This document shows, piece after piece, positions 3,275 through 48,412 of a DNA stretch of 64,000 nt; position 1 is the first letter of the stretch; every line of letters begins with the position of its first letter. The stretch is taken from NCBI GenBank assembly GCA_040876835.1, contig JBBDOX010000018.1:18232-82231 (forward strand), written 5' to 3'. The notes under the pieces are model-generated. The model was given only the letters and a program-made list of their open reading frames with translations, was not told where the DNA came from and searched no databases. This stretch comes from Candidatus Anderseniibacteriota bacterium. GTDB taxonomy: Bacteria > Patescibacteriota > Andersenbacteria > UBA10190. A program made the translations under genes and the position numbers.

Positions 3275-3460
3275 TCAGCCCTCCTTTGCCAGGGCGATGA
3301 ACGCCCTGGTTTTGAGAACCTGAACGAGGATGATGCTGCCCGCCAGACAAGCCTGCCTAGCGGGTGGTCCACTTGGATGGGCCACAGCCACGCCAAGAAC
3401 CATCACCAAGATGAAGGTCAGCAAACAAAACCCCAACAGCGTAAGGAGTCGCGAGTTCAT
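3275..3460 (-). CDS. Small hydrophobic protein (61 aa), compositionally distinct (high GC)
   Basis: GGAGGTG Shine-Dalgarno 5 nt before the ATG for 'MNSRLLTLLGFCLL...'. One predicted TM helix. Hairpin terminator downstream. Confidence 0.3.
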   Translation of the reverse strand: MNSRLLTLLGFCLLTFILVMVLGVAVAHPSGPPARQACLAGSIILVQVLKTRAFIALAKEG

Positions 3461-3937
3461 TTCCACCTCCATTGGAGCTCTCGCACGGACGAACATGCTT
3501 ATGCATGTCCAGGCATCAAGATTCTGGATTTTTCCAGCACCCTACATCCCTGGACATCGTTTAAGACTCATCCTACTCCCGAAGCCTGAATAAAGAACTT
3601 TCCGAAATCTGAGTGAAAAAAATATACTCCTACACCTTTTAAAGTCAAGTATCGGCTTTTTCAGTTTTGCACAGCATATTCTGCTGTGCTAAGCCCTGCT
3701 TCCTTCTACCCGTACAAACAACAATAAATATTCCTACATTTGTGTTATACTTCCTCCCATGGAAATTCTCTCCTTTATCCCTCTCATGAGCAGCATGGCC
3801 TTCGGCGTAGCACTCATGTTCGCATTCTCGCACTTGATGGATCAATAGGCCACCCTTGCCAGCGAGGCCTTAATCCCTTATATTTGCCGACAGTTCGTTC
3901 ACATCCCACCGCTCTCTCATGAGCAGGAGTGTAAGCT

Positions 3938-4948
3938 GTGCAAGAAACCCTCGCGCTGCCGATTTACAATGAGATATTTCGTCTGTGTGCTCATTTGAGC
4001 ATGGTCGCTACAACCTACGAGACGCAGGCTGACTCAGATGTCGAGATGCGGGAGTTCGAATCTTTCATGCAGCGGATGCCTGTTCCCCCGGAGCCGTGGC
4101 ATGCCTGGTATTTCTTCCAGGAATGCATGCATGAGATTCAAAAGACTCAAGCCAAGCTCCGACACTGCTTCGACAGGTTTGATCGAGACCTGTTTGCGCC
4201 GGATCTTTTTGATCAGACTCGTGCTCTGCTGTTTACTGATCTCCTGTTCCACTACTGGACCGGGGCTCACAGCTGGCACCTGAGCTGGCCGCTGGTCGAA
4301 TCTGTTTCGTGCCTGGCTGTCGACAGCAGTCTGGTTCTGGCGGACATGCAGGGCTCAAGGCTGCCCCCAAGCGTATGGATCGAATGGGATACGCCTTCTG
4401 GAGAGCACAAGCCCTGGATCCGCAACGCTCGCGGTTTGCTCGTCTCCCGAATTCCAATTTTCGATGCACCCCTGGAGTTCCGTCAGCAGGTCGCCGAGGG
4501 GTGCAAAGGTCTGGGCAAGACGCGTCAACAGCACTTCTTCGAAGCTCTTGCCGATGCGGCAACCGAGCGTTCCTGTTTGGGCTTTTCGATCACCGCAGTC
4601 CTGAAAAACAGTCAGGGACTGCAATTCGTGACGAGCTACATCGGGCACGAGATGGAGGAAACCGTGCGTGATATGTTTGAATGTCACATTGAGAATGTGC
4701 GTTCAGACAACCCCAAGCTGAAAGAGATTCAGCTGGTGTGGCCGATGACCGCGATTAAACTCCTGCTGTACGCAAGCAGTCAGAACCTGTTTGCGGACGA
4801 AAGGACGCTGACTCGGACAAAGGCTGACAGCATCAAGGAGATCGGCAACAGCTGCGGCACATTCTACCGGCGCAAGGCATTAAGTGGCCCGCGTCTGCAG
4901 ATCCAACCGCACAACGTGGAGCGGAAACCATTCAGGCTCGATGCCTGA
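3938..4948 (+). CDS. Hypothetical protein (336 aa), high-GC orphan
   Basis: Long ORF with coherent GC3-rich codon usage. No motif recognised. Confidence 0.5.
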   Translation: MQETLALPIYNEIFRLCAHLSMVATTYETQADSDVEMREFESFMQRMPVPPEPWHAWYFFQECMHEIQKTQAKLRHCFDRFDRDLFAPDLFDQTRALLFTDLLFHYWTGAHSWHLSWPLVESVSCLAVDSSLVLADMQGSRLPPSVWIEWDTPSGEHKPWIRNARGLLVSRIPIFDAPLEFRQQVAEGCKGLGKTRQQHFFEALADAATERSCLGFSITAVLKNSQGLQFVTSYIGHEMEETVRDMFECHIENVRSDNPKLKEIQLVWPMTAIKLLLYASSQNLFADERTLTRTKADSIKEIGNSCGTFYRRKALSGPRLQIQPHNVERKPFRLDA

Positions 4949-4978
4949 CAAGCTTCTCAAAATGGGGAGGCTTTTTTA

Positions 4979-5968
4979 TTACTGCGCTCTTTCAACCACA
5001 GAAAGAATACTGCCCTTCTCCTCTTCATCCGCCACCCTCGGCTGAGCATTATGTTCAATAATAACGGGAACAAACTCGACACCGGTAAGCTCCGATCCGG
5101 TGAACGTGTACTTCCCCACTATTCCCTCACTGGTTTTCCTTGACCAGTTCTGATCAAAAATGAAGTTGCCATGAGAATATACAATGAGCTTTCCGTTATA
5201 TTCCTCTGTCGTCTGAACCCAGTGAGGATGATTACCGAGCACCAGATCGGCCCCGGCGTCGATTGCTGCATATGCCAGCTCTTGCTGACGTTGGGTGGGT
5301 CGCTCGTGGTACTCCCCTCCCCAATGAAACATCACGGCGACCACAGCAGCTGCTTGTTTTGCTTCAATTATATCCTTCTGTATCAATCCAGGATCTGCTT
5401 TAGTCACAGCATGCTGCCACTGCGTTTCTACATCGTTATATCCTAAAAAGCCGAAGCGAGTCCCACGCACTTCCTGAACTACAAGGCTCCCCGTTCCCAC
5501 AGTTGCTATCCCCTGCTCGTTTAGTAATGTTTTTGTTTGCTGGAAACCGTCAACGCCGTAATTTTCCGCGTGATTATTAGCCAGGCTTGCTATATCCACC
5601 CCTGCCTGTTTCATGGCTGCAATGTGGCGTATATCACCACAGAACTTCATACCCTCAGCCGTTACGGGACAGGATTTGATGATAGGAGATTCCAGATTAA
5701 TGAAAGCAAGGTCGGCAGCCGATACAAGGTCAGCCATGTTTTGCCATGGCCAGAAGAAATCATTTTTTCGCACTGCCTGCATATTCACAAAACGTCCTAA
5801 CATTACATCGCCTGTCACCAGCAGCGTTGTCTCTGCCGGAAGAGGCGAGGCGGTTGGTGTGACGGAAAACGATTCGATAGCACTCTCGGATACCGTAGTA
5901 CTCCTTGCTGCCAGCAAGAGCGATACTAGTATAAGCAGCGGCAGCGCAATCACTCTGACTTCATACAT
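4979..5968 (-). CDS. CapA/PgsA-family metallophosphatase (poly-gamma-glutamate synthesis-type) with signal peptide/TM
   Basis: 'HWGGEYHERPTQRQQELAYAAIDAGADLVLGNHPHWVQ' matches CapA metallophosphoesterase motifs. N-terminal hydrophobic segment. Host-like GC. Confidence 0.7.
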   Translation of the reverse strand: MYEVRVIALPLLILVSLLLAARSTTVSESAIESFSVTPTASPLPAETTLLVTGDVMLGRFVNMQAVRKNDFFWPWQNMADLVSAADLAFINLESPIIKSCPVTAEGMKFCGDIRHIAAMKQAGVDIASLANNHAENYGVDGFQQTKTLLNEQGIATVGTGSLVVQEVRGTRFGFLGYNDVETQWQHAVTKADPGLIQKDIIEAKQAAAVVAVMFHWGGEYHERPTQRQQELAYAAIDAGADLVLGNHPHWVQTTEEYNGKLIVYSHGNFIFDQNWSRKTSEGIVGKYTFTGSELTGVEFVPVIIEHNAQPRVADEEEKGSILSVVERAQ

Positions 5969-6104
5969 TCCCTCATCATACCGGACATACTATACCTCCT
6001 ACTATATACAGCTATTTTTGTTCTCTTGCTTCAACTTTTATTAGTGGCATAATGATGGCAAATACCAACACGTCTTCCCGCTCTTTCCTGAAAGGAGAAT
6101 TTCC

Positions 6105-6461
6105 TTGAGCTACGCCGTTCGCGATGTGACCGATTTCGCGAGCCTGGCGTTAGCCCAAGGGCTTGCCAGGCTTCCTAGGAGACGTTTCCCTCTCTTAGCC
6201 TATGTGGAGTTTGTGCGGGTAATTGATTTTTCGTCGTACTGTACGCGGCGGGACGTCAGGCACCTTCTTGCCTACTTTGCCCTCTGTCCTGAGGTGGAAG
6301 GGATCTGCATTCTTGCTGTAGCACCCACCCTTGCTACCGGGACGGTGGTTCAATGGCATTCTCTCAATGATCTTAGCCCTTCCTCTCTCCGTACAGAGAA
6401 TCTGGGGGGTTGTGAGGTCAAAACTTTCTGGAAGATCCTGCAGGAATACAGGTCTCAGTAG
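6105..6461 (+). CDS. Hypothetical protein (118 aa), high-GC orphan. Paralog of the next gene.
   Basis: TTG start 8 nt after an AAGGAG Shine-Dalgarno. Shares '..VEF..' and 'V.WH.L.D' blocks with ORF 6628..7017. Confidence 0.45.
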   Translation: MSYAVRDVTDFASLALAQGLARLPRRRFPLLAYVEFVRVIDFSSYCTRRDVRHLLAYFALCPEVEGICILAVAPTLATGTVVQWHSLNDLSPSSLRTENLGGCEVKTFWKILQEYRSQ

Positions 6462-6627
6462 GTAGCTGGCACAGACTGCTGGCTTTTTTCTTGATTTGAC
6501 ATATATGCGTATATACTTTACTATTGAAAACTTCACTTGGGCACCCGGCTCAAGTTTGTTCATTCCAGACTAAAAACAAGGAGGTATTTAAGAGCAGCTG
6601 GATGCGCGGTGTTGAAACCAGGCTCAC

Positions 6628-7017
6628 TTGAAAGGATTTCACTTGGTTACTAAGGATGATGAAGCGGTTCGAGCCGCGCTGGTGGAGCACATCATCGGCC
6701 TTCCCATTCAAGAAAAGGACATCCTGAGCTGGGTCGAATTCACTTCCCACTGCAAAGAGGAGGACCGTTTCTTCCTCTGCTACTTTGAGTGGCACATCGT
6801 TCGAGGCGCAGCTGTGCTTCGCATGACGCCCAACTCAAAGCCTGCAGTGCACTGGCACTTGCTGACGGACTGGTACGACGAACACCAGAGTGACGGGTGC
6901 TGTCCCGAGCGGTACATCGGCGGATGTCCGTCTGCACTGTTCTTCGCCTTGCTGGAACAGCATACCCCCGAACATGCGATTGGACGCCCCACCGAGGTGG
7001 CTGCCCTTTCCGCCTGA
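6628..7017 (+). CDS. Hypothetical protein (129 aa), high-GC orphan. Paralog of 6105..6461.
   Basis: 'GLPIQEKDILSWVEF' and 'VHWHLLTDW' blocks align with the preceding ORF. Start is uncertain: a 9-codon uORF (6602..6631) ends at a TGA that overlaps the TTG at 6628. Confidence 0.45.
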   Translation: MKGFHLVTKDDEAVRAALVEHIIGLPIQEKDILSWVEFTSHCKEEDRFFLCYFEWHIVRGAAVLRMTPNSKPAVHWHLLTDWYDEHQSDGCCPERYIGGCPSALFFALLEQHTPEHAIGRPTEVAALSA

Positions 7018-7180
7018 ATACGTTTGCGCCGCAGGCACCCTCCTGACGGCGTTTTTTTGTTTGTACCACTGCCTATTGCAATTTTTGTAAGGCATTGTTA
7101 AACAGAAATACCTTGAGCCATACGTTTGGTTTGAGTCTTTCCAGGGTGTTCTCTTCTCAGTTCATTCAGAAGGAGACGGA

Positions 7181-7804
7181 ATGAGTACTCTTCTTCCCAC
7201 TTACGGTTGGAGCAAGAAGCAGACGGCGGACCCAGGCGGCTACTTGGAGGAGATGGGTCAATACGCGGAAGCACTGAAAAAGCATCGCGGCACCTACTTC
7301 ACCCACGAGCTGCTTTCACCCAGCTCAAGTAAGCTTCGGGGTGTTGCGGTGATCGGTGAGGCAGCGTTCCTCGAGAGGACTTCCAATGGATTTCTAGTCG
7401 GATTGTTCCGACTCGAAAACAGGTTTCATCAGAATCCTCTCTTTGACCTCTTGCCACCCGGGACGCTCTGGCCGAAAATCGGCATCGTAGAAATGGGTGT
7501 GAGGGACCTCCTCGAGAGCAGCGGGATCGAGGTCACTCAAGGACCCATCGACTACACCCTCCCCTCTCCGCATAAGGTGAGCACCGTTTGGCTGCACCGG
7601 GAAATTGACGCCTACGAGCAACGCCTCGTCGTGAGTACTCATTGGAAGGCAAGCGGCCTTCACGAGCTGGTGGGCACAATCCTGTCGTCCAGAGACATTC
7701 GATGGGCGTCCGGCCAGGGAGGCCTTGTGCTTCAGCGGTACTCCTTCGAGCGTCCAGAAGCACAGGAGCTGTTGTTCCCCTACAGCTACCCGCCAAAGAC
7801 GTAA
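7181..7804 (+). CDS. Hypothetical protein (207 aa), high-GC orphan
   Basis: Long ORF with GC3-rich codon usage, followed by a hairpin plus T-run. Confidence 0.5.
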   Translation: MSTLLPTYGWSKKQTADPGGYLEEMGQYAEALKKHRGTYFTHELLSPSSSKLRGVAVIGEAAFLERTSNGFLVGLFRLENRFHQNPLFDLLPPGTLWPKIGIVEMGVRDLLESSGIEVTQGPIDYTLPSPHKVSTVWLHREIDAYEQRLVVSTHWKASGLHELVGTILSSRDIRWASGQGGLVLQRYSFERPEAQELLFPYSYPPKT

Positions 7805-13341: not shown

Positions 13342-13604
13342 GGGTAAATGCAAAATCCGACTCATCAGTGGCAAAGAGTGAATTCGCGCAAGCAGTAGGA
13401 ATGCACGAGAGCTTAAACACTCAAGACAGGGCAAGCCGAAACTGTCCCAGCTATGTTGCGCTAAGCCACCCCTAACGTAAGTAAATATATCAGGGGCCCC
13501 TCCTTACCACGGACAAGGCGGATTTTTATACCTAATTCAATGAACTGATTATTATAATCATCCAGGAGGTTTTGTCAAGTGCATTTAGAAGACCAAAGAA
13601 AAAG

Positions 13605-13634
13605 CGGGTGGATACAGCTTACATCCGACCCGCT
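13605..13634 (-). terminator. Intrinsic terminator after ORF 13659..14042
   Basis: gcgggtcggatgtaagctgtatccacccgc hairpin followed by TTTTTCTTT on the minus strand. Confidence 0.45.
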
Positions 13635-13658: not shown

Positions 13659-14042
13659 CTAGTGTGCAGCCAGCCACCAGTTCCGGCTGTCGCGCTGCCG
13701 TGCGGTCCGGTTGTGCCGACGTCCGCCTCGGTGCTTTTTGGGTTCCCTGGGGCGGAACACACTCTTGAGTCCCGCATAGTTCAGCAGGAGCTCTCGACCA
13801 GCTTCGGGGGGCAACGCCCGCACGTTTGGGTCATGGCGACACTCGACGTGCACCAGGCCAACCTCGGGCGACCCGTTGCGAGCGAGGACCGACGGCTGCT
13901 CCCAGTCGACGTCCTTTTTGCAACCCAGACAGCGATCGTGGCGCTTGATCGCTTGCCGGATCTTTCGCTTCTGCAGCCGCGTCAGTCCTACGCCCAGTGC
14001 CTTGTCTGGGCAGCTTCGCTGCAACACCAGCAGTTCGGTCAT
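13659..14042 (-). CDS. Hypothetical Cys-motif protein (127 aa), high-GC island
   Basis: 'RCLGCKK...(22 aa)...GLVHVECRH' motif, paralogous to the C-terminus of 14255..14956. GC about 60% by eye. Confidence 0.4.
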   Translation of the reverse strand: MTELLVLQRSCPDKALGVGLTRLQKRKIRQAIKRHDRCLGCKKDVDWEQPSVLARNGSPEVGLVHVECRHDPNVRALPPEAGRELLLNYAGLKSVFRPREPKKHRGGRRHNRTARQRDSRNWWLAAH

Positions 14043-14254: not shown

Positions 14255-14956
14255 TCAGCGCCAGGACGCGAACGACTCTTCGTGGCTGCTCGTCGACTGC
14301 TTCCGCAAGTCAGACAGACGCCGCTTTTCGGCCTCGATGACCCTGTCGCGGATGATCCGGCCAATCTCAAGCGAGGTCAGCAGTTGGCACAAGATTCTGG
14401 GGTGCTTCTGCTGAAGCTTTCGCACGCACCTCTGGTCGGCGTGTACCAAGCCGATCGCCTTGCACCGATCACGGTCGCCGATGCGCACCATGTACCCCTT
14501 GTCGAGCACGGGTTCCGTGCATCCCGTGCAAGCGGCATTCTTCTTGAGCCAGGTCCGAGCCTCTTTCTGCTCCTCGGCGTTGAGACCGCGACCTTCCCGC
14601 TTGCCATTGCTGACCCTGACAGCAGCGAACGGGCGCGGGAAGGACAGAAGGCTGGCCTTCGCCATCTTCGTCTTGACCATGCTCTCGTCCAGCTGTTTCC
14701 ACAGCTCGCCGGGGGTGCTCAGTTCGTAATCCCCCTCAGCGTACGCCGCTTCGAAGATCACTTCGATCCGGTTTCCCCTCTTGACAGCCAGGAGCCGCTC
14801 ACCCAGCCGCAGCCACTGCTTCAGAATGGGACACTGCCCATACTGCCAGTCCTGCAGGATGACGAGCACCTCATCGACCGGAACCCCCAGCCAATTTGCC
14901 AACTCAGACAAATTGAAGCCAGCGTGCCGGTTCTGCACTCCCACATCGGTCTTCAT
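14255..14956 (-). CDS. Hypothetical protein (233 aa), high-GC island. N-terminal family motif plus C-terminal CxGC...GLVHxxxRC motif.
   Basis: 'LSELANWLGVPVDEVLVILQDWQY' at the N-terminus, and 'ACTGCTEP...(23 aa)...GLVHADQRC' at the C-terminus. Confidence 0.45.
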   Translation of the reverse strand: MKTDVGVQNRHAGFNLSELANWLGVPVDEVLVILQDWQYGQCPILKQWLRLGERLLAVKRGNRIEVIFEAAYAEGDYELSTPGELWKQLDESMVKTKMAKASLLSFPRPFAAVRVSNGKREGRGLNAEEQKEARTWLKKNAACTGCTEPVLDKGYMVRIGDRDRCKAIGLVHADQRCVRKLQQKHPRILCQLLTSLEIGRIIRDRVIEAEKRRLSDLRKQSTSSHEESFASWR

Positions 14957-15156: not shown

Positions 15157-15228
15157 GCGCCCATAGCTCAATGGTAGAGCAGTGGCCTTTTAAGCCAACG
15201 GTTCCAGGTTCAAGTCCTGGTGGGCGCA
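15157..15228 (+). tRNA. tRNA-Lys (anticodon UUU)
   Basis: 72-nt cloverleaf. Acceptor GCGCCCA/TGGGCGC, D-arm GCTC-AATGGTA-GAGC, anticodon loop CTTTTAA, T-arm CCAGG-TTCAAGT-CCTGG, discriminator A. Confidence 0.9.
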
Positions 15229-15325
15229 CAATCTAAAGTATGGTCGCGGTATTAAATTGGAGGCTCAAGTCAGTTTTTAACCTGGCTCTTTTAAGAATAT
15301 CCAGGCATGCAACCCTGGCTCTTTC

Positions 15326-16153
15326 TTAAGGGTTTTTAAGAATTTCTTCAATTCGGGGATTCTGATCAACTTTTCTGCCAAGCAACTGCAGTGATTCAAA
15401 GATATCAGCAATAAGTCCCGCCGCCTGTTCGTTTTTAATAACTACAGCCACTAATTCCTGCCAGTTGGCAATGATCACCGTATCGTTATGCAACGTTACC
15501 TCTGAGTCAAAGTTTAATCGTTCAGCTGGAACATGGTGAGTAATTGCGAGACGCCCACCGTATGCCTGCAAAATATCTTTTGATGATTTCCCCTCTTTTT
15601 TAAGCCGATCAGTGTAGTAATCAAGGAAATTCTCCTGCAGGATCGCCTCAACAATAATTTTTCGATCCTTTATGGATTGATTTAGTTTTACAAGCCGATC
15701 ATAAGGAAAGTGTTTCATTACGCTATAGGCTGAGATGTTCGGTTGCATGATGTGAAGACGAGTATGGCGAGGAAGCTGTCCCAGGCTTTCATAAATCTCA
15801 ACCAACTTATTCTTTCCCGCATACACTTTGTATTCGCTCTGCTGCGAGGAAATAATGCCCAGCTCTTGCTCACCTGACTCCTCCGCAATTTCGTGAGAAT
15901 GCGCAAGCATGAATAGTTTTTCGCGCAATTTTCTTGGCGATACCGTCTTCCAGTATCGCCGCTTGCCGCGGTTAGTGGTAGTAACTAGGCCTCGCTCCTT
16001 CAGGCGTGAAAGCCTCGGGTATACACTCGTGCGCGGCTGGTGAGTACTTCGGGCCAGCTCAGACACACTTAAATCGTGCTTTTCGAGCATTTTGAGAAGC
16101 GCATTATCTTCTGACGTAAGCCCTAATAAGGTGAGCGATTCCCGAGTAAACAT
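15326..16153 (-). CDS. TrmB-like winged-helix transcriptional regulator
   Basis: N-terminal wHTH 'LSVSELARSTHQPRTSVYPRLSRLKERGLV' followed by a C-terminal effector-like domain. Host-like GC. Confidence 0.55.
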   Translation of the reverse strand: MFTRESLTLLGLTSEDNALLKMLEKHDLSVSELARSTHQPRTSVYPRLSRLKERGLVTTTNRGKRRYWKTVSPRKLREKLFMLAHSHEIAEESGEQELGIISSQQSEYKVYAGKNKLVEIYESLGQLPRHTRLHIMQPNISAYSVMKHFPYDRLVKLNQSIKDRKIIVEAILQENFLDYYTDRLKKEGKSSKDILQAYGGRLAITHHVPAERLNFDSEVTLHNDTVIIANWQELVAVVIKNEQAAGLIADIFESLQLLGRKVDQNPRIEEILKNP

Positions 16154-16342: not shown

Positions 16343-17326
16343 ATGTCAGACCTTACCGAAGACCGCCAGGTCCTGGTCAACCTCGAGATCAATAAGGACT
16401 GTCAGCTCACCAGTGTGTGTGGTGACAGTTGTTTTCTGAACCTCGTGGAGAAAGCCTTGCCTGGTGTGGAGCGACTTGCGCCGGCGGCAGTACTTGCCGC
16501 CGCTCGGGAAGTAATCGACCACGGTCAGACAGTGCGTCACCTTGCTATTACGGGCAAGGAGCCGCTGGACACCCCGGATCTGTTGTTCGACATCTTGCGG
16601 TATTACCATGCTGCACCAGTCGAGTCACGGCCGGGTACCGTGGGCATTATTACGTCGGGCTTGCAACTTCGACGACATGCCCACCGCTTCCCGGAGTTGC
16701 CGCTGGATTGGTGTGCTATGTCCCTTGATATCGCATCATCGGTCTTGCATGTCGAGCGCATGAACGAAAAGCTGTTCGGCGACCTGCTACACGTGAAGGA
16801 CACTGGCGGGATCAAGTCGTTCACGGTTAATTCCGTGTACACGGCTGATAACTACAAGGATGTCCTGCAATTCGGCAAATGGCTTACCGCTAAGCTGGGC
16901 GAAGGAGACCAGTGGGGCTTGTCATCACTGATGCTTCCTCAGCATGGCGTGATGCAGCCAACTGTTTCGATTCCGGCGACCCGCGAGATGATTGACCTCG
17001 CACTCGAGGAGTTGAGTGATACAGCCTGCGATATCCTCTTCGAACCTGACCCTGACGAGTTTGAGATTTTGACTGGCAAGTCAGTCAAGAAGCGATGGCG
17101 AACTGAGCTGCACCTCGCTGGGGGTATCTGGATGATTACGGTACCAAGCGAAGAAGGCTACTTTGTACGGCTGCGCTGGGATGGGCAGCTGTTGACCCGC
17201 AAGGACTTGCGATGCATTGGTCTTCGCCAGGCGACCTACGGCGCCTACCAGGCAGGTAGACTCGTAGAAACACTGGAGCGGTTGAGTGTTACTCGGTCGC
17301 TGGACCAGCAACCCACACAACACTGA
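16343..17326 (+). CDS. Radical-SAM-fold protein with a non-canonical Cx5Cx3C cysteine cluster (high-GC island)
   Basis: 'NKDCQLTSVCGDSCF' cluster, a 'LAITGKEPLD' (GGEPLL-like) motif, and 'GIITSGLQL' and 'MSLD' elements in the expected radical SAM order. GGAGGG Shine-Dalgarno before the ATG at 16343 (the ORF track starts at 16274). Confidence 0.45.
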   Translation: MSDLTEDRQVLVNLEINKDCQLTSVCGDSCFLNLVEKALPGVERLAPAAVLAAAREVIDHGQTVRHLAITGKEPLDTPDLLFDILRYYHAAPVESRPGTVGIITSGLQLRRHAHRFPELPLDWCAMSLDIASSVLHVERMNEKLFGDLLHVKDTGGIKSFTVNSVYTADNYKDVLQFGKWLTAKLGEGDQWGLSSLMLPQHGVMQPTVSIPATREMIDLALEELSDTACDILFEPDPDEFEILTGKSVKKRWRTELHLAGGIWMITVPSEEGYFVRLRWDGQLLTRKDLRCIGLRQATYGAYQAGRLVETLERLSVTRSLDQQPTQH

Positions 17327-17333: not shown

Positions 17334-17549
17334 ATGGTGTTAGGCAACGAGATGGCGAACGAGGGTCTCTCAAGAAGGAAGAGGAGGACGCAGATGGTAC
17401 TCGGCAACGAGATGGCAAAGGAAAACCTGCGCGAACGTCTGCACAAGACGACGAGCCAGGCAGCAAAGAAGCAGTCCCCAGCGGACGCCCCCAAGGACGA
17501 GAAGTGTGAGAACCAGGAGAGCAAGGAACAGGCTCACGGTTCGCACTAG
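17334..17549 (+). CDS. Small K/E-rich peptide (71 aa) with a duplicated N-terminal 'MVLGNEMA(N/K)E' motif, translationally coupled to the radical-SAM-like gene
   Basis: AGGTGA Shine-Dalgarno 4 nt before the ATG, which lies 8 nt after the upstream TGA stop. A near-tandem DNA repeat encodes MVLGNEMANEG and MVLGNEMAKEN. Single Cys, then a hairpin plus T-run terminator. Confidence 0.35.
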   Translation: MVLGNEMANEGLSRRKRRTQMVLGNEMAKENLRERLHKTTSQAAKKQSPADAPKDEKCENQESKEQAHGSH

Positions 17550-17703: not shown

Positions 17704-17997
17704 ATGGAAACGAGCAAGACGGTGGCAGTGAAGCGTCGTCCATTCCACGAGACGGTCGTCGACGCCATCAACGCCTGCGACGTGGAGACGTTCCTGTGCC
17801 TGACAGAGCTGATCAAGATTACCAAAATCCCCAAGGGGCATGACGAGATCATCTCAGCCTGGGAGGGACGTCGGGAGCAACTGGTCTTCCCCGACGGATA
17901 CCGCGGGGTGGTGGCTGATCTCCTCGAGCAGAAAGAGGAAGCAGCCGCGAAGGAAGTGGCCAAGCAAGAGGCAGAGCCCATCTCCTCCCCGTCCTGA
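17704..17997 (+). CDS. Hypothetical protein (97 aa), high-GC orphan carrying the family N-terminal motif
   Basis: 'ETVVDAINACDVETFLCLTELIKITKIPKGHDEIISAWEG' aligns with the 'GLPIQEKDILSWVEF' block of ORF 6628..7017. Confidence 0.45.
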   Translation: METSKTVAVKRRPFHETVVDAINACDVETFLCLTELIKITKIPKGHDEIISAWEGRREQLVFPDGYRGVVADLLEQKEEAAAKEVAKQEAEPISSPS

Positions 17998-27783: not shown

Positions 27784-27990
27784 ATGAGGTGTGTGGTTTT
27801 TGGATCCGATGGGCTGCCCCTTGCCCCGTCGATCGACCAGACTCGCGGCGTGCGCTTGATTCGAAACAGAAGCGGAGAACTGTATGTCTGTCGCCAGTGT
27901 CCCTTCTCTTGCTACATCAAGGAGGGAGCTGTCCCACGCTATGTCCGCTGTAGCCAATGTGGCGGCGTGATGGACCCCTCTCCTACGTAA
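27784..27990 (+). CDS. Small CxxC...CxxC zinc-ribbon protein (68 aa), high-GC orphan
   Basis: AGGAGG Shine-Dalgarno before the ATG. 'CRQCPFSC...CSQCGG' Cys pairs. Followed by a hairpin plus T-run. Confidence 0.4.
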   Translation: MRCVVFGSDGLPLAPSIDQTRGVRLIRNRSGELYVCRQCPFSCYIKEGAVPRYVRCSQCGGVMDPSPT

Positions 27991-37250: not shown

Positions 37251-37481
37251 ATGGGAAGGTACTGGTTGTTGCGATCCAAGGTCAAGCGGCTCATCACCTG
37301 GCCATGGCGAGCGTTTCGCCACACCGTCCTGGATGAGCTGTGGTTTCGGCGCCTCTCCGACGAGGAGCGAAGACTGTGGCTCATCGCCTGCTTCAAGGAA
37401 GGCAATGATTACCGTGGCATCGTTCGCCGTCACAGCAGGGCGCTTCAGGCCAAGCAGAAACATCTGACTCCGCTTGCTTGA
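37251..37481 (+). CDS. Small basic protein (76 aa), high-GC orphan minigene between lexA and rmuC
   Basis: Own promoter and a downstream hairpin terminator. The opposite-strand ORF 37178..37405 has no such signals. Confidence 0.4.
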   Translation: MGRYWLLRSKVKRLITWPWRAFRHTVLDELWFRRLSDEERRLWLIACFKEGNDYRGIVRRHSRALQAKQKHLTPLA

Positions 37482-41209: not shown

Positions 41210-42154
41210 ATGGTAACGCTTGTCATCACATTACTGGGATCACTTGCGGTATTGGTTATTACCAGCCGGTACGCAATTCGCCTGCTGACAAACGTTACAA
41301 CCGCCTTAGGTATATCAGAGTTTACGGTCGCCTTTATTATTCTGGCGGTAGCCACTTCCGTTCCTGAACTATCTCTTTCGATTCTATCGGCACTTGATAA
41401 CGCAGGAGAGCTTGTACTGGCCACAGCTCTCGGATCAAATGTCATTAACATGACTCTGATTATAGGCACGGCCGCTATTGTGTCATTGGGTATCTCCACT
41501 TCAGGATTAAAGCTGGGGCGGGACTTACTGTTTGGTGGTGTTACCACCACTATGCCAATTCTGTTTCTAATCAACGGGGTTATCTCCCGCCTCGAAGGCG
41601 GTATCCTTATTACCGCGTTTTGCATTTACATGCTACTACTCTACCGCGACCAGCAGGCATTTAGTACGAAGCGAACGCCTCGGCATATTCTTAAAGGAGC
41701 GGGCTCGCTCTTGCTGGCTATACTGTTACTGGGCGTAATTGTGTACGCTGCTGATAGAACAGTAGGGTCTTCAGTGGAGCTAGCTAGAATTCTGGGATTA
41801 CCTACATTCTTGATTGGCATCTTCCTTCTCGCACTGGGAACTTCTCTGCCTGAGTTCACCACGACGGTTCAGTCCGCTCTGCTGCGTAAACCAACAATGG
41901 CTCTGGGGAATATTCTAGGCAGCAACGTAACTGACTCCGCGTTGATTATTGGTATTGCCAGCGTTATCCGACCGATTCATGTTCCTATCAATCCATCACT
42001 TCTTACCACAGTCCTCTTTATTCTTCTATCACTAATATTGCTGGGATATTTCGCCACTACCCGCAAAAAAATATCCATGAGTGAGGGCCTCGTCCTCCTC
42101 CTCGTATTCATTATGTTCATTATTACAACCCTTCTGGTTGCTCCGGCGAGCTAG
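41210..42154 (+). CDS. Na+/Ca2+ exchanger (CaCA/YrbG-like) membrane protein
   Basis: Two alpha-repeats: '[14 protein letters not shown]' and '[14 protein letters not shown]'. Confidence 0.7.
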
Positions 42155-42765
42155 ATTTCTAGGGCTTTTGTATAATTTTCCTGAACCTGCTTCCAGTTAA
42201 CGACATTCCACCAGGCGGCAATGTAATCAGGCCGTTTATTCTGGTAGTTAAGATAGTACGCATGCTCCCACACATCGACCCCCAGAACAGGTGTTTTGCC
42301 ATCAGTCAGCGGTGAGTCCTGATTAGATGTTGACACTACTTCCAGTGATCCGTCACTGACTACCAGCCAGCCCCAGCCGCTACCAAATTGTCCGGCAGCA
42401 GTCTCGGATAACTTCGTTTTAAAATCATTAAAGCTGCCAAAGGTTGTACTAATTGCTTCAGCTAGCTCCCCTTCCGGCTCTCCCCCGCCGTCAGGACTCA
42501 TAATTGTCCAGAAGAGATTGTGGTTGATATATCCTCCACCATTATTCCGCACTGCTTTTTGAATATCTTCAGGAATCGAGTGTAGGTCAGTAATAATATC
42601 CTCCGCTGATTTACTGGCAAGGTCAGGGTGCCCTTCCAGGGCAGCATTGAACTTATCAGTATATGCCTGGTGGTGCTTAGTGTGGTGAATTTCCATCGTC
42701 CGCGCATCAATGTGCGGCTCGAGCGCGTCATAGCTATATGGAAGAGAAGGTAGTTCAAACGGCAT
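42151..42765 (-). CDS. sodA: Fe/Mn superoxide dismutase
   Basis: '[28 protein letters not shown]' and 'DVWEHAYY' signatures. Confidence 0.9.
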
Positions 42766-42955: not shown

Positions 42956-43279
42956 CTATTCATCGATTTCTTCGTAGTCATAGAGGGAGTCGTCCTCCTC
43001 TCCTTCGCAAGGATCTGCGTCGACGCAAACAGAGTCTTCGTCATCCCCCCACTGGGCATCGTCCTCGTGCCGAAAGGGCAGCCCGCAGGCGTAACGAGCA
43101 GCGATGACGATGAGCTTGTCTTCCGAGTCCGGTTTGGCAGCGCTGGGCAGTCTCGGATCAATACCAAGCGCCATGAAGTCGTCTACTGTGTAGCCCTGAG
43201 CTTTACCTTTCTCCCTTTCCCTATTCGCCGGAGTAGAGCGGTGCGATTCCCAAAATTCCCTCAGGTCGTCGCTGATCAT
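42956..43279 (-). CDS. Small acidic protein (107 aa), high-GC orphan
   Basis: GGAGG Shine-Dalgarno 7 nt before the ATG of 'MISDDLREFW'. D/E-rich C-terminus. Adjacent to tRNA-Glu. Confidence 0.4.
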   Translation of the reverse strand: MISDDLREFWESHRSTPANREREKGKAQGYTVDDFMALGIDPRLPSAAKPDSEDKLIVIAARYACGLPFRHEDDAQWGDDEDSVCVDADPCEGEEDDSLYDYEEIDE

Positions 43280-43405: not shown

Positions 43406-43477
43406 GGCCTCATCGTCTAACGGCTAGGACGTAGCGTTCTCAACGCTAAAATCGGAGTTCGATTCTCCGTGGGGCTA
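43406..43477 (+). tRNA. tRNA-Glu (anticodon CUC)
   Basis: 72-nt cloverleaf. Acceptor GGCCTCA/TGGGGCT (two G-U pairs). Anticodon stem TAGCG/CGCTA with loop TTCTCAA. T-arm CGGAG-TTCGATT-CTCCG. Confidence 0.8.
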
Positions 43478-43538
43478 CAATATTTATCGGTAGACTTTGA
43501 CACCAACTGAAAAATTTTAAGTATCATACAACATTTTA

Positions 43539-45606: not shown

Positions 45607-46134
45607 TTAGCGACAGAAGGTTTCCTCTGCCGCGAATCCGAGCTTCGTATAGAACCCAACCTTGGCCGGATCACAGTAGAGACGAGCGATGTGAATGCGG
45701 TCGTATCTACTCTGGGCGAGAAGAGCGGCGACAGTGTTCGTTGCTGCGCCCCGACATCGAAACTTCGGATGCGTCATGACATATTCGACGTGACAGTCCG
45801 GGCCGATGCACACTCGCAGGGCTGAACTAATCAGCAAATTGTCCTCTGCCAGTGTGAAGAAAACCTTCGTCAGCAGGCAGTGGAAGAACGCATCATGCTT
45901 GCCCTGATTCATGAACAGGCCATCCTCCTGGCAGGAGCGCATGATCGTCCTGTACTGATCGTACCGCCGGCGATCGCTGACCAACTCGCCAGGAGTCAGG
46001 CTTATAACCTGCAGCGGCGAAATGACTTCTGGCGGCCTCCACGAGGCGAGTTGACACTTCATGAACACGGCTTCCATCGAATCCCTCCTTGTTCGAAATA
46101 CCCTGAAAAACGAGCCGGGAACACCATATATCAC
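45607..46134 (-). CDS. GNAT-family N-acetyltransferase (high GC)
   Basis: 'HVEYVMTHPKFRCRGAATNTVAAL' (motif A, R-x-x-G-x-A) and 'GFYTKLGF' (motif B). Confidence 0.5.
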   Translation of the reverse strand: MIYGVPGSFFRVFRTRRDSMEAVFMKCQLASWRPPEVISPLQVISLTPGELVSDRRRYDQYRTIMRSCQEDGLFMNQGKHDAFFHCLLTKVFFTLAEDNLLISSALRVCIGPDCHVEYVMTHPKFRCRGAATNTVAALLAQSRYDRIHIARLYCDPAKVGFYTKLGFAAEETFCR

Positions 46135-46214: not shown

Positions 46215-47378
46215 TTATATCACCGTCAGAATAGTACCGGGGTGAATCAGTGTCGGCACAATATTGTATGTGTTTATAAAGCTGCGTGAGGGGCGTTTTT
46301 CGTCAGAATTAAAATGAATATCAAAGGGGTACAGTTTATTACCCTGTTTTACAACTAAGTCCACTGTACTGTCGTTTCGTGACTGCCAAAAGAACAGATC
46401 TTCCTGGCGATTATATGTCCGGCCCTGCTTCCAGATTTCTGCCATCACCCAGTTCTCCCACAATGTATCAATATCACTACGTTTGTCTGAGACTACCCAT
46501 TCGCGCTGAAGGGCGTTTTTTACACCTGTATCCCAAAAGTAATATTTTCTGGTTTTAGTTATTTCCTTTATGGGGTCTGTTGCATACGCTGGCAGACTAA
46601 AGATAACAAAGATTGCCTCTAGTAAATCTAGATACTTTTGAACCGTCTGCCGACTGATGTTAAGCCGAGTGGCTAGCTGCAGAACAGAAACCGTGTTTCC
46701 AATTTCTTTAGCAAGCTCCAGCAAAAGACGCCTGATGTCTTCGGGCGATCGTACGAGGGAGGCCGTAAAAATATCTTTGAGCAAATAGTCGCTCGTTAAA
46801 TTAGTGAGATACTGACTGGGATCAGATGAAAGAAATGCTTCGGGATAGCTGCCAAAGACTAAGCGATTTAAGAGCGACGATCGAATCTGACTGTCGAAGT
46901 GCGTATGAAGCTCAGTGGCAGTATATGCCGGTGTAAACCATGTTTGCTGAGCTAACGTTTCGCGGAAAAGAAGCGGGGTGAGCCACAGTTTTTCGTTGCG
47001 CCCGGTGAGTTCAGCTGCAGCAGTATCTAGTAATGTAGCGCTGGACGATCCAAGTAAAATTATTTTCGTAGTCACGTGAGCGTCGTACCACCCCTTACAA
47101 ATGCGACCGACGTCTGCCACCCGGTGAGCTTCGTCAATAACCAAAACATCTTCCCCTCCCAGTGCTCGAATAGCGTCCTGAGGTGCCAGTTGAGCGGCAG
47201 CTACAAACCGGGCGCGATCCACTTCTATATCCATATTCAGCAATGCGCCTCGTCTTTCAGATAGAGCATGCTCAACTAAAGTGGTTTTGCCTACCTGTCG
47301 AGCACCAAGAAGCAATAGTACCTTGGAAGTGTCGAATGATTTTTTTAGCTCTTCTTCAAGTAGCCGAAGGATATACAT
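46215..47378 (-). CDS. AAA+ ATPase of the DUF4143/COG1373 type
   Basis: Walker A 'GARQVGKTTL', Walker B 'VLVIDEAH', and a C-terminal DUF4143-like region. Confidence 0.6.
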   Translation of the reverse strand: MYILRLLEEELKKSFDTSKVLLLLGARQVGKTTLVEHALSERRGALLNMDIEVDRARFVAAAQLAPQDAIRALGGEDVLVIDEAHRVADVGRICKGWYDAHVTTKIILLGSSSATLLDTAAAELTGRNEKLWLTPLLFRETLAQQTWFTPAYTATELHTHFDSQIRSSLLNRLVFGSYPEAFLSSDPSQYLTNLTSDYLLKDIFTASLVRSPEDIRRLLLELAKEIGNTVSVLQLATRLNISRQTVQKYLDLLEAIFVIFSLPAYATDPIKEITKTRKYYFWDTGVKNALQREWVVSDKRSDIDTLWENWVMAEIWKQGRTYNRQEDLFFWQSRNDSTVDLVVKQGNKLYPFDIHFNSDEKRPSRSFINTYNIVPTLIHPGTILTVI

Positions 47379-47523
47379 GTGTAAATATACATTACAATTT
47401 TTGTACTTAAATTGTAAAGTATATTTTACAGTATAATACTCTAAAACTTACAAAACTCTTACAAAGAAAAAGGCTCAGACCACTCTGGCAAGCGATCTGA
47501 GCAGGAAGTCGGGGCGAAAAGGA

Positions 47524-47973
47524 TCAGGAGACCTGCTCCTGCAGGAAGCTGAGGTATCCCCCACGCCGCAGCCGCAGATCACGACGCTCTTCGGGCAGGT
47601 ACGTGACCTGCAAGTCCTCGACGGCTTCCACCACGACGACGTTGCCGCGGTTGAAGATCCTGCACTTGCAGCTCAGGAACCCGTACTTCATGGTCCTGAC
47701 CCGAGTGAAGATCCGCTCCACGGAGCTGTTTGAGAAGTGAACGGACGGAGACTCGGAGAGAATGATCCTCCCCTGCTCGACCGGGCGGACTTCTCCCTTG
47801 CCGGCAATGAGAGCCGGGCAGAAGGAGAGGGTGGCCGCACGCGAGGAATCGGCCTTGACGCCCACTCCCTCGAGCCGCAGGTTTTCGGCACCATAGCCTG
47901 GCGCGATGCCTGCCTCCTCCAGCGTCCGCAAGAACGAACTCTCCTGGTCGGCCAACAGTGAGTACCGCGACAT
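47524..47973 (-). CDS. Hypothetical protein (149 aa), high-GC orphan
   Basis: GGGAGGG Shine-Dalgarno 6 nt before the ATG of 'MSRYSLL'. The overlapping ORF 47579..48007 is R/G/P-rich, typical of an off-frame artefact. Confidence 0.4.
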   Translation of the reverse strand: MSRYSLLADQESSFLRTLEEAGIAPGYGAENLRLEGVGVKADSSRAATLSFCPALIAGKGEVRPVEQGRIILSESPSVHFSNSSVERIFTRVRTMKYGFLSCKCRIFNRGNVVVVEAVEDLQVTYLPEERRDLRLRRGGYLSFLQEQVS

Positions 47974-48081
47974 GGACTTCCCTCCCAAAGGGAACAAGTA
48001 AGGGCACAGGTCTCCTAGCCTGTTGCCACTACATTAAGCATGCTTCTTCTGTTGATAATAAGTCAACTCAGACTAACAAAA

Positions 48082-48101
48082 ACACCCCTTTTGAGGGGGT
48101 G
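48082..48101. terminator. Bidirectional hairpin terminator after the zinc-ribbon gene
   Basis: acacccctt-ttg-aggggtgt hairpin with an A-run on one side and a T-run on the other. Confidence 0.5.
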
Positions 48102-48121
48102 TTTTCTTTCCTTACGCGAGA

Positions 48122-48412
48122 TTACTCACCGCGCTTGAAGTGCTCCCGGCAATATACCGGACGGCCTTCTGTTGGGCGAAACGGTACTTGCGTAGCCGCG
48201 CCACAGGTGGCACAAACAGCATCAAACATTTGACGCTCTCGGCGACCGAAGTCACCGCCACCGCCACCGGACTGCTGTCCGCGCATCTCTTTGAAGCACG
48301 AGCTACAGTACACAGGACGATCGCCTGAAGGCTGAAACGGAACTTGCGTTTCGTTTCCGCACTTGGAGCAGACCGCATCGAACATCGGTCGGTCTGAACT
48401 TCCATCCATCAT
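48122..48412 (-). CDS. Tandem double CxxC zinc-ribbon protein (96 aa; zf-trcl-like), high GC
   Basis: Internal duplication: 'RPMFDAVCSKCGNETQVPFQPSGDRPVYCSSCFK' and 'RQMFDAVCATCGAATQVPFRPTEGRPVYCREHFK', joined by a Gly-rich linker. Confidence 0.5.
   Translation of the reverse strand: MMDGSSDRPMFDAVCSKCGNETQVPFQPSGDRPVYCSSCFKEMRGQQSGGGGGDFGRRERQMFDAVCATCGAATQVPFRPTEGRPVYCREHFKRGE

Follow-up and report, generated by a model that had tools for sequence, protein, structure and literature searches.

Small GC3-rich gene cassettes with Shine-Dalgarno motifs between the core genes of an Andersenbacteria genome

Introduction

The 64,000-nt stretch of DNA analysed here (the window) belongs to a MAG of Candidatus Andersenbacteria (Parcubacteria/CPR), an uncultured ultra-small bacterium, and it raises the question of why small genes of unusually high GC content are scattered between its housekeeping genes. 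A sequence-only reading had described these genes as a GC3-rich class, almost devoid of recognisable functions, within a core of ~49% GC. It had attributed them either to repeated small insertions from a higher-GC donor, as opposed to one large island, or to a dispersed accessory gene family. We took the 16 ORFs within its 10 intervals as the listed set and compared them with the window's other 50 genes.

Results

Composition and assigned functions

The window has a GC content of 0.4965, and pooled GC was 0.574 in the listed ORFs vs 0.493 in the other 50 genes. Mean GC3 was 0.686 vs 0.497, with a Mann-Whitney p of 3e-9 that is partly circular, because the ORFs had been picked for GC in the first place. 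GC3 per ORF was bimodal, a mixture of two Gaussians (means 0.684 and 0.496) being better than a single one by 17 BIC units. Fourteen of the 16 listed ORFs had GC3 values of 0.62-0.82 and exceeded all 52 remaining genes, that is, the two listed exceptions and the other 50 (0.39-0.61, maximum 0.612), with resident genes lying near 0.50. The proposed class stands for 14 ORFs and not for two: 48122-48412 (GC3 0.546) belongs to the conserved core, with a sister-genome counterpart at 94% identity, and 6105-6461 has a borderline GC3 of 0.58 and was retained solely because it is paralogous to 6628-7017.

By the Karlin dinucleotide distance, the listed ORFs stood 117 from the remaining genes, as compared to 29 +/- 9 (maximum 61) for size-matched core subsets. 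GC steps at the cassette edges were abrupt and matched the ORF ends (e.g. 0.31 to 0.64 at 47400/47500), and the cassettes displayed the GC1>GC2<GC3 pattern of coding sequence. They are mostly single genes of 60-340 aa (median about 120 aa), interleaved with genes whose composition is host-like (GSDH, ExoX, CapA, TrmB). The Pfam threshold was reached by one of the 14 GC3-high genes, a GNAT acetyltransferase, vs at least 41 of the 52 others (Fisher p = 3e-6, computed with 40/52 for the latter), so that the described lack of recognisable functions was borne out.

Expression signals

The Shine-Dalgarno (SD) signal claimed for these genes was present and discriminating. With permissive starts for both classes, GGAGG/AGGAG preceded 12/16 listed ORFs vs 6/50 others (p = 4e-6), and with strict starts 8/16 vs 1/50 (p = 2e-5); at the loci of relatives, SD 5-mers were found before about 8 of 193 ORFs. 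TANNNT boxes at -16 to -10 showed the opposite distribution (18/50 core genes vs 1/16 listed ORFs), and the starts of core genes look largely leaderless, many apparently lying directly behind a -10 box. A hairpin plus T-run, as had also been claimed, followed nearly all listed ORFs, such sites being about twice as frequent as in shuffles. The claim of own promoters held in part: sigma-70-like sites lie 5' of 3938, 6628, 17704, 27784, and 37251, but the overall count of promoter-like sites (24 vs 17.6 +/- 4.1) was not above that in shuffles.

Synteny in related genomes

We examined synteny at three hotspots, namely L27/pyrG, aspS/tRNA-Lys/hyp, and zf/AAA14 (AAA_14). At least 12 related Andersenbacteria MAGs share the core order dnaK-hyp-dnaJ-hyp, aspS-S41-L9-pyrG, and L27-MTase, and in them the two gaps between these blocks are short and variable; in the window they measure 5.1 kb and 6.8 kb and harbour cassettes that do not occur in the relatives' gaps. 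At all three hotspots the relatives hold other genes or none, and no repeats common to the cassette flanks were found, which supports small repeated insertions over one large island at these sites. Sister genome GCA_040881505.1, which comes from another sample, has the same kind of cassettes beside the same core genes: an unrelated GC3-rich desaturase-like gene replaces 47524-47973 in the zf/AAA14 slot, and an SD-led mini-insertion of its own lies between S41 and L9.

Cassettes outside the tRNA-Lys gap

The first cassette is a putative gene for a 61-aa hydrophobic protein (3275..3460, minus strand), with GGAGG 5 nt ahead of its ATG (3460), a GC3 of 0.66 (over the longer ORF 3275-3496), and a terminator-like hairpin at 3256-3228; gene calling on the Logan assembly also picked it up. 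It is followed by a gene for a 336-aa protein with an AcrVA2/FinQ-like fold (3938..4948, plus strand; GC3 0.66), which has a promoter-like site and a terminator of its own as well as AGGAG. AcrVA2, of similar size (about 330 aa), was the only strong structural neighbour of this protein and its 22-member family, and phage proteins of equal size in BFVD matched the family. Sequence similarity to AcrVA2 was not detectable, and, unlike in AcrVA2/FinQ, the gene is chromosomal and without mobile-element context, while the conserved residues H105, W147, E149, and GHE236-238 differ in position. As an anti-CRISPR, AcrVA2 causes Cas12a mRNA to be lost in a translation-dependent manner, and its fold family is typical of plasmids and phages (bioRxiv 10.1101/2022.11.29.518452). 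Close to the cassettes lie a gene flagged by PADLOC as a defence candidate (PDC-S01) and one for a PIN toxin.

Three further plus-strand cassettes encode a 118-aa protein (6105..6461; AGGAG, terminator 6464-6484), its 129-aa Cys/His/Trp-rich paralogue (6628..7017; GC3 0.67, TTGACA-17-TACTAT at 6496-6524), and a 207-aa ORFan (7181..7804; GC3 0.68, AGGAG). The ORFan matched only itself among 5.8 billion clusters and is absent at the corresponding place in the sister genome. The paralogues were 27.5% identical over 109 aa by BLASTP (E = 4e-7); they were the one clear pair in an all-against-all comparison, which gave one additional marginal pair, and the notion of a dispersed accessory family was thus not sustained.

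Of the cassettes at other slots, a putative gene for a 68-aa protein with a CxxC...CxxC zinc-ribbon-like motif (27784..27990, plus strand; GC3 0.62, GGAGG, terminator 28029-28047) lies between cysS and dnaB, and one for a 76-aa basic protein (37251..37481, plus strand; GC3 0.71, promoter-like site 37166-37195, terminator 37510-37529) between lexA and rmuC. The latter has no SD motif, is absent from the protein collection, and is the weakest member of the set. A putative gene for a 107-aa acidic protein, hypothetical in the NCBI annotation (42956..43279, minus strand; GC3 0.63, GGAGG 8 nt before the ATG, terminator 42938-42920), lies 127 nt from tRNA-Glu (43406-43478). The GNAT gene (45607..46077, minus strand; Acetyltransf_1 24.7 bits, cut-off 20.7) has GGAGG before its ATG at 46077, a terminator at 45594-45576, and a GC3 of 0.66 over the longer ORF 45607-46134. 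The window's highest GC3 (0.82) belongs to the gene for a 149-aa protein (47524..47973, minus strand; GGAGG, terminator 47502-47473), a singleton cluster at 90% identity for which family and structure searches gave no match.

The tRNA-Lys gap and its radical-SAM-like module

The described adjacency to tRNA genes was confirmed for tRNA-Glu and for tRNA-Lys(UUU) (15157..15229, plus strand). The latter is a conserved anchor, kept in the same gap in nine relatives, in a region that is variable in all relatives and has undergone local inversions; cassettes lie on both of its sides, and a search for a duplicated tRNA 3' end found none and hence no att-like repeat. To its left lie minus-strand genes for a 127-aa basic protein with CxxC...HxEC motifs (13659..14042; GC 0.64, GC3 0.75), without a Pfam, PHROG, or PADLOC match and absent from the relatives' aspS/tRNA-Lys gap, and for a 233-aa ORFan (14255..14956; GC3 0.80, AGGAG, terminator 14236-14204) that ends 200 nt upstream of the tRNA. 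The ORFan matched only itself in homologue searches, and its ORF is longer than those in all 300 shuffles of the slot.

On the other side, a TrmB-like regulator gene identified by Pfam (15326..16153, minus strand), with a host-like GC3 of 0.46 and a leaderless-type TATAAT just 5' of its ATG, is divergent to the gene (16343..17326, plus strand; GC3 0.64, GGAGG) for a radical-SAM-like enzyme of 327 aa whose Cx5Cx3C motif is invariant. The regulator gene is absent from the relatives' corresponding gap. The enzyme scored 23.8 bits against PF04055 (cut-off 29.5) and has eight homologues of 31-52% identity, one of them in a ParA/methylase/CHAP context. It is followed by an ORF of 71 aa (17334..17549, plus strand; GC3 0.78, terminator 17571-17596), whose product contains MVLGNEMAxExL as a tandem motif together with a tail rich in K/D/E/Q and is a candidate substrate peptide, and by a 97-aa ORF (17704..17997, plus strand; GC3 0.77, AGGAG, TTGACA-18-AATACT at 17616-17645) for which family searches gave no match.

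In L175, a TrmB-like orthologue (56% identity) pairs with a radical-SAM-like gene adjoined by a 46-aa tandem-motif ORF, and on the P0015 contig a 276-aa TrmB-like gene occurs in the same pairing. The presence of the trio on unrelated contigs points to a mobile module. The L175 module has host-like GC3 and has kept its SD motifs; together with the different GC3 of regulator and enzyme in the window, this indicates that GC3 and SD both fall short of being pure markers of recently imported DNA. An enzyme of this type beside a short tandem-repeat ORF and a divergent regulator, with the trio recurring on other contigs, resembles radical-SAM RiPP clusters, but the cysteines are not arranged as CxxxCxxC, the match to Pfam falls short of the threshold, and the window holds no SPASM domain, protease, or exporter.

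Discussion

The reading that we favour, with a probability of about 0.65, is that the cassettes reflect the repeated, integrase-free gain of single-gene units from a higher-GC, SD-using pool, and we infer this horizontal origin to lie in other bacteria or their mobile elements. About fourteen small genes would have joined an SD-poor backbone, one or a few per event, at inter-operon slots that would act as gene-turnover hotspots of the lineage, each cassette being self-contained with a GGAGG-type ribosome-binding site, coding region, and hairpin terminator. The cassettes are mutually unrelated and most are true ORFans, lacking homologues altogether; those that can be interpreted resemble cargo of an accessory or conflict type (an AcrVA2/FinQ-like protein, several small proteins that are Cys-rich and zinc-finger-like, a GNAT, and the regulator, radical-SAM-like, and repeat-peptide module). 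The proposed higher-GC donor finds support in GC1/GC2/GC3 codon usage, which matches that of genomes with about 58-62% GC, and in the closest relatives of 3938-4948 and the radical-SAM-like gene, which sit on roughly 60% GC contigs; however, the search through homologues yielded no donor, with best matches of 31-52% identity and several cassettes without any. Since no integrase, transposase, att duplication, attC, or common flanking repeat was found in the window, the mode of insertion is purely inferred, and most plausibly it would be recombination of DNA imported by the competence machinery.

Horizontal-transfer hotspots between core genes are a general concept of bacterial pangenome work, and acquired DNA is more often AT-richer than its host. 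As in such hotspots, accessory genes occupy a few slots between syntenic core genes, with contents that vary by genome, some slots adjoin tRNA genes, and many lack recognisable mobility genes; the units here differ in being very small, GC-richer than the host, and equipped with another translation-initiation signal. Atypical composition, tRNA-Lys/tRNA-Glu adjacency, and variability among relatives are shared with tRNA-linked genomic islands, yet these measure 10 kb or more, whereas the cassettes at the tRNAs total 0.3-3 kb, lie on both tRNA sides, and lack an integrase, a duplicated tRNA 3' end, and direct repeats. Integron cassettes are likewise short, mutually unrelated, mostly single-ORF units without assigned function, but the units in the window are dispersed and not arrayed, have no attC-like imperfect inverted repeat or intI, and each have their own terminator and some their own promoter.

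A rather unlikely alternative, though the one that survives best, is that these are native, fast-evolving, lineage-specific genes, forming an SD-led expression class whose GC3-rich codons are kept by selection or expression mode. The 6628-7017 family fits this view: a copy directly adjoins pyrG in the sister genome, and both are GC3-rich (0.66-0.68) at 52% identity, which implies a long-term absence of amelioration or repeated replacement. So do the host-like TrmB partner and the SD motifs retained in L175 at 45-56% protein identity, which suggests that genomes of this kind can use SD-led initiation. However, the absence of the cassettes at the same slots in at least 12 relatives, slot contents that differ even among sister genomes, and a dinucleotide signature that departs from the core beyond GC3 all argue against this view, and the window's ribosomal-protein and chaperone genes lack the bias. 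Variable ORFs in 13 more distant relatives were only weakly GC3-shifted (+0.023, p = 0.065) and not SD-enriched; this counts against the favoured reading, and the missing SD enrichment also against a native class.

We also think it unlikely that the cassettes are what is left of the cargo of larger mobile elements, at most a few in number, such as a prophage, ICE, or integrated plasmid, that deletion and rearrangement would then have eroded and scattered. They occupy ten separate sites over 45 kb among syntenic housekeeping operons and share no repeats; structural phage genes, an integrase, and PHROG matches are missing, and IMG/VR, phage, and plasmid searches were empty. This stands against an AcrVA2-like fold typical of mobile elements, PDC-S01 and the PIN toxin nearby, the variable and locally inverted tRNA-Lys gap, and the ParA/methylase/CHAP context of one enzyme homologue. 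Quite improbable is the view that some listed ORFs, chiefly the four shortest (3275-3460, 27784-27990, 37251-37481, and 42956-43279), are chance ORFs in GC-richer spacer DNA: dinucleotide shuffling of their own slots gave ORFs as long in 7-36% of cases, and 37251-37481 lacks both an SD motif and an entry in the protein collection, but three of the four have a well-spaced GGAGG and a terminator, their codon-position pattern is that of coding sequence, and the longer cassettes, several with homologues, exceed chance length (matched in 0-6 of 300 shuffles). An assembly or binning artefact, with fragments of a higher-GC organism mis-joined into the contig, is barely credible. The source is a MAG, and the Logan contigs, assembled independently from the same run, end at 7582, 13494, and 15229/30, but their sequence was 100% identical through many core/cassette junctions (1-7582, 13494-15229, and 15230 onward), ten short inserts with host sequence on each side are implausible as chimeras, and the sister genome repeats the arrangement.

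Genomic islands are numerous in Patescibacteria, as are genes transferred singly, and these bacteria are regarded as naturally competent via comEC and pili (PMC12455944). The gain of small cassettes from a higher-GC pool would accordingly be ordinary horizontal gene gain, an event type known in Patescibacteria that is seen unusually cleanly here.

Composition of the listed ORFs

The genome belongs to the Parcubacteria group of Patescibacteria/CPR (NCBI taxonomy), and the housekeeping backbone of the window is ordinary by Pfam, with L27, pyrG, L9, an S41 protease, aspS, dnaJ/dnaK/grpE/hrcA, cysS, dnaB, recR, L21, lexA, rmuC, ribE/ribF, sodA, an mraZ-mraW-divIC-PBP-Mur cluster and a ClpB-like gene. 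As a gene table we took the longest non-overlapping ORFs and amended them with gene calls from an independent assembly. On the minus strand, an ORF with a PIN_3 domain (35916-36392) shares 228 nt with the longest lexA ORF (36165-37103). In the latter, the DNA-binding domain is found only from residue 110 on, so the true lexA start is probably near 36470.

The sequence-only reading had singled out ten intervals in this backbone as compositionally distinct, GC-rich cassettes; they contain 16 ORFs. At a window GC of 0.4965, the pooled GC of these listed ORFs was 0.574 versus 0.493 for the 50 other genes, and their mean GC3 was 0.686 versus 0.497 (Mann-Whitney p=3e-9, a value that is partly circular because the ORFs had been picked by GC). 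The bimodality proposed as a check was indeed recovered, as a two-component GC3 mixture (means 0.684 and 0.496, weights 0.25 and 0.75) outperformed one component by 17 BIC units. In 14 of the 16, GC3 was 0.62-0.82 and exceeded that of all other genes (range 0.39-0.61, maximum 0.612). The description did not fit the remaining two: 6105-6461 (GC3 0.58) can be grouped with the others solely as the paralogue of 6628-7017, and 48122-48412, with a GC3 of 0.546 and two PF23477 zinc fingers, belongs to the core, its counterpart in the sister genome GCA_040881505.1 being 94% identical. With GC1/GC2/GC3 of about 0.60/0.43/0.70, the listed ORFs show the pattern of real coding sequence from a genome near 60% GC, and the sharp GC steps in the window match ORF ends. 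Regional GC-biased gene conversion at hotspots was ruled out, given that the GC rise ends at ORF boundaries and that CapA, GSDH, ExoX and TrmB, which neighbor the cassettes in the hotspots, have host-like composition.

The listed ORFs differ from their neighbors in other respects as well. Their symmetrised dinucleotide relative-abundance distance to the rest was 117, compared with 29 +/- 9 (maximum 61) for size-matched random subsets of core genes. They are shorter (median 122 versus 312 aa) and richer in cysteine (2.8% versus 0.5%), and of the 14 GC3-high genes a single one passed a Pfam threshold, versus at least 41 of the 52 others (Fisher p=3e-6, computed with 40/52).

That the cassettes are an assembly artefact is very unlikely, since Logan, an independent assembly of the same sequencing run (SRR27977662), reproduces the window at 100% identity over 1-7582, 13494-15229 and from ~15230 onward, stretches that span many core/cassette junctions. 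Logan contigs end at 7582, 13494 and 15229/15230, the last being the exact 3' end of tRNA-Lys; these breaks may stem from low coverage or from differences between strains where cassettes begin and end.

Translation initiation and transcription signals

A strong GGAGG-type Shine-Dalgarno (SD) sequence had been proposed for several of the cassettes, and this claim held. With longest-ORF starts, GGAGG/AGGAG was present at the proper start distance in 8/16 listed ORFs versus 1/50 others (p=2e-5); when any start within the first 30 codons was allowed in both classes, this became 12/16 versus 6/50 (p=4e-6). The dinucleotide signature and the SD are thus two markers independent of the GC-based selection of these ORFs, and they agree.

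Resident genes mostly do without an SD. In 18 of 50, a TANNNT box starts 10-16 nt upstream of the start codon, most often at -12, an arrangement typical of leaderless transcripts, and the -1 position is T in 26 of 49. A box in that position was seen for one of the 16 listed ORFs. Example resident upstream regions are those at 789, 15326-16153, 19963-20919, 23409-24116, 37534-38586, 42151-42765 and 53104-54282. Related Andersenbacteria loci are as SD-poor as the resident genes, with the SD 5-mer in about 8 of 193 ORFs, and in a published survey no more than 48% of Parcubacteria had a recognizable anti-SD motif (PMC9297842). Among the 177 sequences covered here, none contains a 16S rRNA gene whose 3' end could be read for such a motif. 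Judged from these upstream motifs, leaderless or SD-independent initiation may well be widespread in the Andersenbacteria lineage of the window.

Several cassettes had also been credited with their own terminators and promoters. Terminator-like hairpins indeed follow almost all listed ORFs, such sites being about twice as frequent as in shuffles. For promoters the outcome was mixed: promoter-like sites lie upstream of five listed ORFs, but the total count of such sites was not above chance. Structured RNAs hidden in the GC-rich stretches were ruled out, the Rfam matches being two tRNAs only. Upstream of aspS lies a gene-free spacer of 600 nt (13061-13658). Its minus strand has a perfect TTGACA-16-TATAAT (13578-13551) that precedes the start of aspS by ~490 nt, and no T-box or other Rfam family was found in this leader.

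Turnover in syntenic slots

A genome-collection scan with PyrG yielded the same neighborhood from 18 Andersenbacteria-like MAGs, of which a dozen share the gene order dnaK-hyp-dnaJ-hyp | aspS-S41-L9-pyrG | L27-methyltransferase. Between pyrG and L27 the relatives have a gap of 0.06-2.3 kb and the window one of 6.8 kb; for the aspS|hyp gap the sizes are 1.5-4.5 kb and 5.1 kb. No homologues of the window's gap genes were found in the relatives' gaps, except for 6628-7017 in the closest relative. The aspS|hyp gap holds tRNA-Lys(UUU), in either orientation, in nine relatives; the tRNA is therefore the ancestral anchor, flanked to the left and right by variable genes. At all three hotspots compared (L27|pyrG, aspS|tRNA-Lys|hyp and zinc finger|AAA_14), cassettes are absent or replaced in relatives while the flanking core is syntenic. 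A SodA metagenome scan for synteny of the 32-52 kb region returned 80 loci, none of them a syntenic Andersenbacteria relative.

Core proteins of the sister genome (locus L001) are mostly 68-94% identical to those of the window, with 52% for the Mur ligase. In this genome the 6628-7017 homologue (52% identity, GC3 0.66-0.68) directly adjoins pyrG, and 7181-7804 is missing. The sister genome also carries an insertion of its own, 745 bp long (L001 2210-2947), between the genes for the S41 protease and L9, a pair that only 35 bp separate in the window; it holds a 64-aa SD-led ORF (GAGGAGG motif, terminator) and a convergent 120-aa ORF (GC3 about 0.60, no Pfam match). The slot of the ORFan 47524-47973 is taken there by a fatty-acid-desaturase-like gene with a GC3 of 0.68. 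The two genomes thus show four gene-content differences in ~20 kb of comparable sequence, three of which involve GC3-rich genes.

A gene of host-like composition at 48724-53067 encodes a 1447-aa protein with no Pfam domain; it is missing from the corresponding place in the sister genome, where the Mur ligase and zinc-finger genes are 200 bp apart. The AAA_14/DUF4143 ATPase gene at 46215-47378 (GC3 0.44, second-lowest in the window), has GC-rich cassettes on both sides and is kept in the sister genome at 68% identity. It matched the candidate defence family PDC-S01 in PADLOC (E=1e-92), which returned nothing for the cassettes themselves.

In 13 more distant relatives, GC3 exceeded the conserved-gene median by more than 0.10 in 12 of 61 variable versus 1 of 143 conserved ORFs, but the mean GC3 shift of variable ORFs was small (+0.023, p=0.065) and their SD sequences were not enriched. 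One clear counterpart was present: the Pfam-less, 246-aa ORF 15622-16362 of the locus L007, with a GC3 of 0.76 against a locus median of 0.51 and the motif AAGGAGGA upstream, matches the cassettes of the window in type. Given this weaker picture, the strong GC3-rich, SD-led class is mainly a feature of the window genome and its sister.

Mobile-element signatures

Classical genomic islands and integrative elements are recognized by a mobility gene and by flanking direct repeats or a duplicated tRNA 3' end. We found none of these at the cassettes: no integrase or transposase domain was present in any window gene scanned, the 24-mer 3' end of tRNA-Lys has no second copy even when as many as 3 mismatches are tolerated, and repeats were at chance level. 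An integron array would have attC sites, intI and tandem cassettes, whereas here there is no conserved inverted-repeat family and no integrase, and the cassettes are scattered across 45 kb.

Searches for a phage or plasmid origin gave little. PHROGs returned no real matches, IMG/VR was negative (four single-protein scans and one profile scan), and so were tblastn searches of phage records with two cassette proteins and of plasmid records with 3938-4948 and the radical-SAM-like gene. The sole phage link is the set of fold-level matches of 3938-4948 described below. The donor search retrieved distant homologues (31-52% identity) on contigs of 44-62% GC. Finally, the proposal that the cassettes form a dispersed accessory gene family was ruled out, as all-against-all BLASTP gave a single clear paralogue pair.

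Predicted products of the cassettes

NCBIfam and PDB sequence searches with the cassette proteins gave nothing useful. Two products, 14255-14956 and 7181-7804, are ORFans, with self-matches only among 5.8 billion protein clusters. The ORF 45607-46077 encodes a GNAT acetyltransferase (Pfam Acetyltransf_1, 24.7 bits, cut-off 20.7), and several of the remaining cassettes contain CxxC-type motifs.

The protein encoded by 3938-4948 belongs to a family of 22 representatives with at most 33% identity. An AlphaFold model from the family alignment (pLDDT 89, pTM 0.91) has the predicted three-domain fold of AcrVA2, and in BFVD it is matched by roughly ten phage proteins of equal length, some from jumbo phages. 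The conserved C-terminal residues of AcrVA2 are H286 and R288. Since a profile of 23 sequences had no match at E<=10 among PDB sequences and no sequence similarity to AcrVA2 was seen, this is a fold-level resemblance rather than demonstrated membership. The contigs that carry family members range from 44% to 62% GC, with ~60% for the closest relatives, and the members seen are located on chromosomes or short contigs. AcrVA2 orthologues, among them FinQ, a plasmid protein, are reported to be widespread in mobile elements that for the most part do not accompany Cas12a (bioRxiv 10.1101/2022.11.29.518452).

The module at 15326-17997 consists of a TrmB-like regulator, a divergent radical-SAM-like enzyme (16343-17326), a 71-aa ORF and a 97-aa ORF. 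Whereas radical SAM enzymes are defined by a CxxxCxxC motif and a PF04055 match above threshold, this enzyme has an invariant Cx5Cx3C and a PF04055 score of 23.8, below 29.5; its matches to BlsE, MoaA and viperin were weak, and its homologue P0014 carries a precomputed PF04055 match. The 71-aa ORF contains a tandem MVLGNEMAxExL motif and a K/D/E-rich tail. An analogous tandem motif, A(I/V)AEMAGExL, and again a K/D/E-rich tail occur in a 46-aa ORF of the related module on contig L175 (1080-3300), and on the contig of the homologue P0015 a 48-aa ORF, known by length alone, adjoins the enzyme. The regulator-enzyme pair was present on three other contigs, in 3/3 with a short ORF beside the enzyme. 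As in RiPP-type enzyme/peptide modules, a short, substrate-like ORF is thus a conserved neighbor of the enzyme, and by its gene content the module is a candidate uncharacterised peptide-modification system. Two further enzyme homologues are on contigs of ~60% GC, and in L084 an oligopeptide ABC transporter comes after the enzyme gene. On the contig L086 (~60% GC), whose other genes are 60-69% GC, the module (1290-3251) lies within the low-GC part (683-3251, 0.43-0.54). This contrast, opposite to that of the window, fits a module that may move between genomes.

Origin of the cassettes

We favor, with a probability of about 0.65, repeated acquisition of the cassettes. The source would be a higher-GC, SD-using gene pool, from which units would have been taken up one or a few genes at a time, repeatedly, and inserted at chromosomal hotspots without an integrase. 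This explanation fits what is reported for Patescibacteria, namely many islands, singly transferred genes and competence (PMC12455944).

Several observations speak against a simple recent import. The 6628-7017 gene common to both genomes is not ameliorated, and the TrmB-like partner has a host-like GC3 of 0.46 though it travels with the enzyme. The L175 module has kept its SD motifs at host-like GC3, and SD-led initiation is therefore probably functional there. The main rival to acquisition is a native, SD-led, fast-evolving gene class, to be set against the deviating dinucleotide signature and the turnover at the hotspots. A second rival holds that the cassettes are remains of eroded larger mobile elements; the AcrVA2-like fold of 3938-4948 speaks for it, and the lack of mobility genes and shared repeats against it. 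Neither a donor nor an att site was detected, and these negative results together also weigh against simple recent import. That the shortest listed ORFs are chance ORFs would concern the four short ones that are not proven genes, and the class as a whole has the codon-position composition of real coding sequence.

A more far-reaching version, which we hold to be improbable, is that the cassettes form a non-random standing pool, repeatedly re-imported via competence into fixed slots from one higher-GC, SD-using partner, with conflict genes kept. This partner could be the host of the bacterium, presumably an episymbiont, or else an element shuttling between the two. The retained conflict genes, i.e. 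the AcrVA2-like protein, the zinc-finger proteins and the modified-peptide module, would be used against the partner or its mobile elements. If this were true, the cassette signature of codon usage and SD could name the host, and continual replacement would explain the unameliorated gene common to the sister genomes.

CPR/Patescibacteria genomes are tiny, and how these bacteria acquire new functions is still under study. Gain of genes by horizontal transfer at hotspots is already well known, and the by-products of this analysis, i.e. the contrast between SD-led and leaderless genes, the AcrVA2-like family and the enzyme/repeat-peptide module, are noteworthy, yet would not surprise a specialist. 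The window is nevertheless a very clean new example, in which three independent markers, namely codon composition, dinucleotide signature and initiation signal, single out nearly the same set of small genes, and synteny places these in turnover slots. Looking for SD-led genes where a genome is otherwise largely SD-less and leaderless may offer a simple, practical screen for recent imports. Three leads are an AcrVA2-like family in CPR-type genomes, an uncharacterised enzyme/repeat-peptide module, and the possible tracing of donors, perhaps hosts, by composition.
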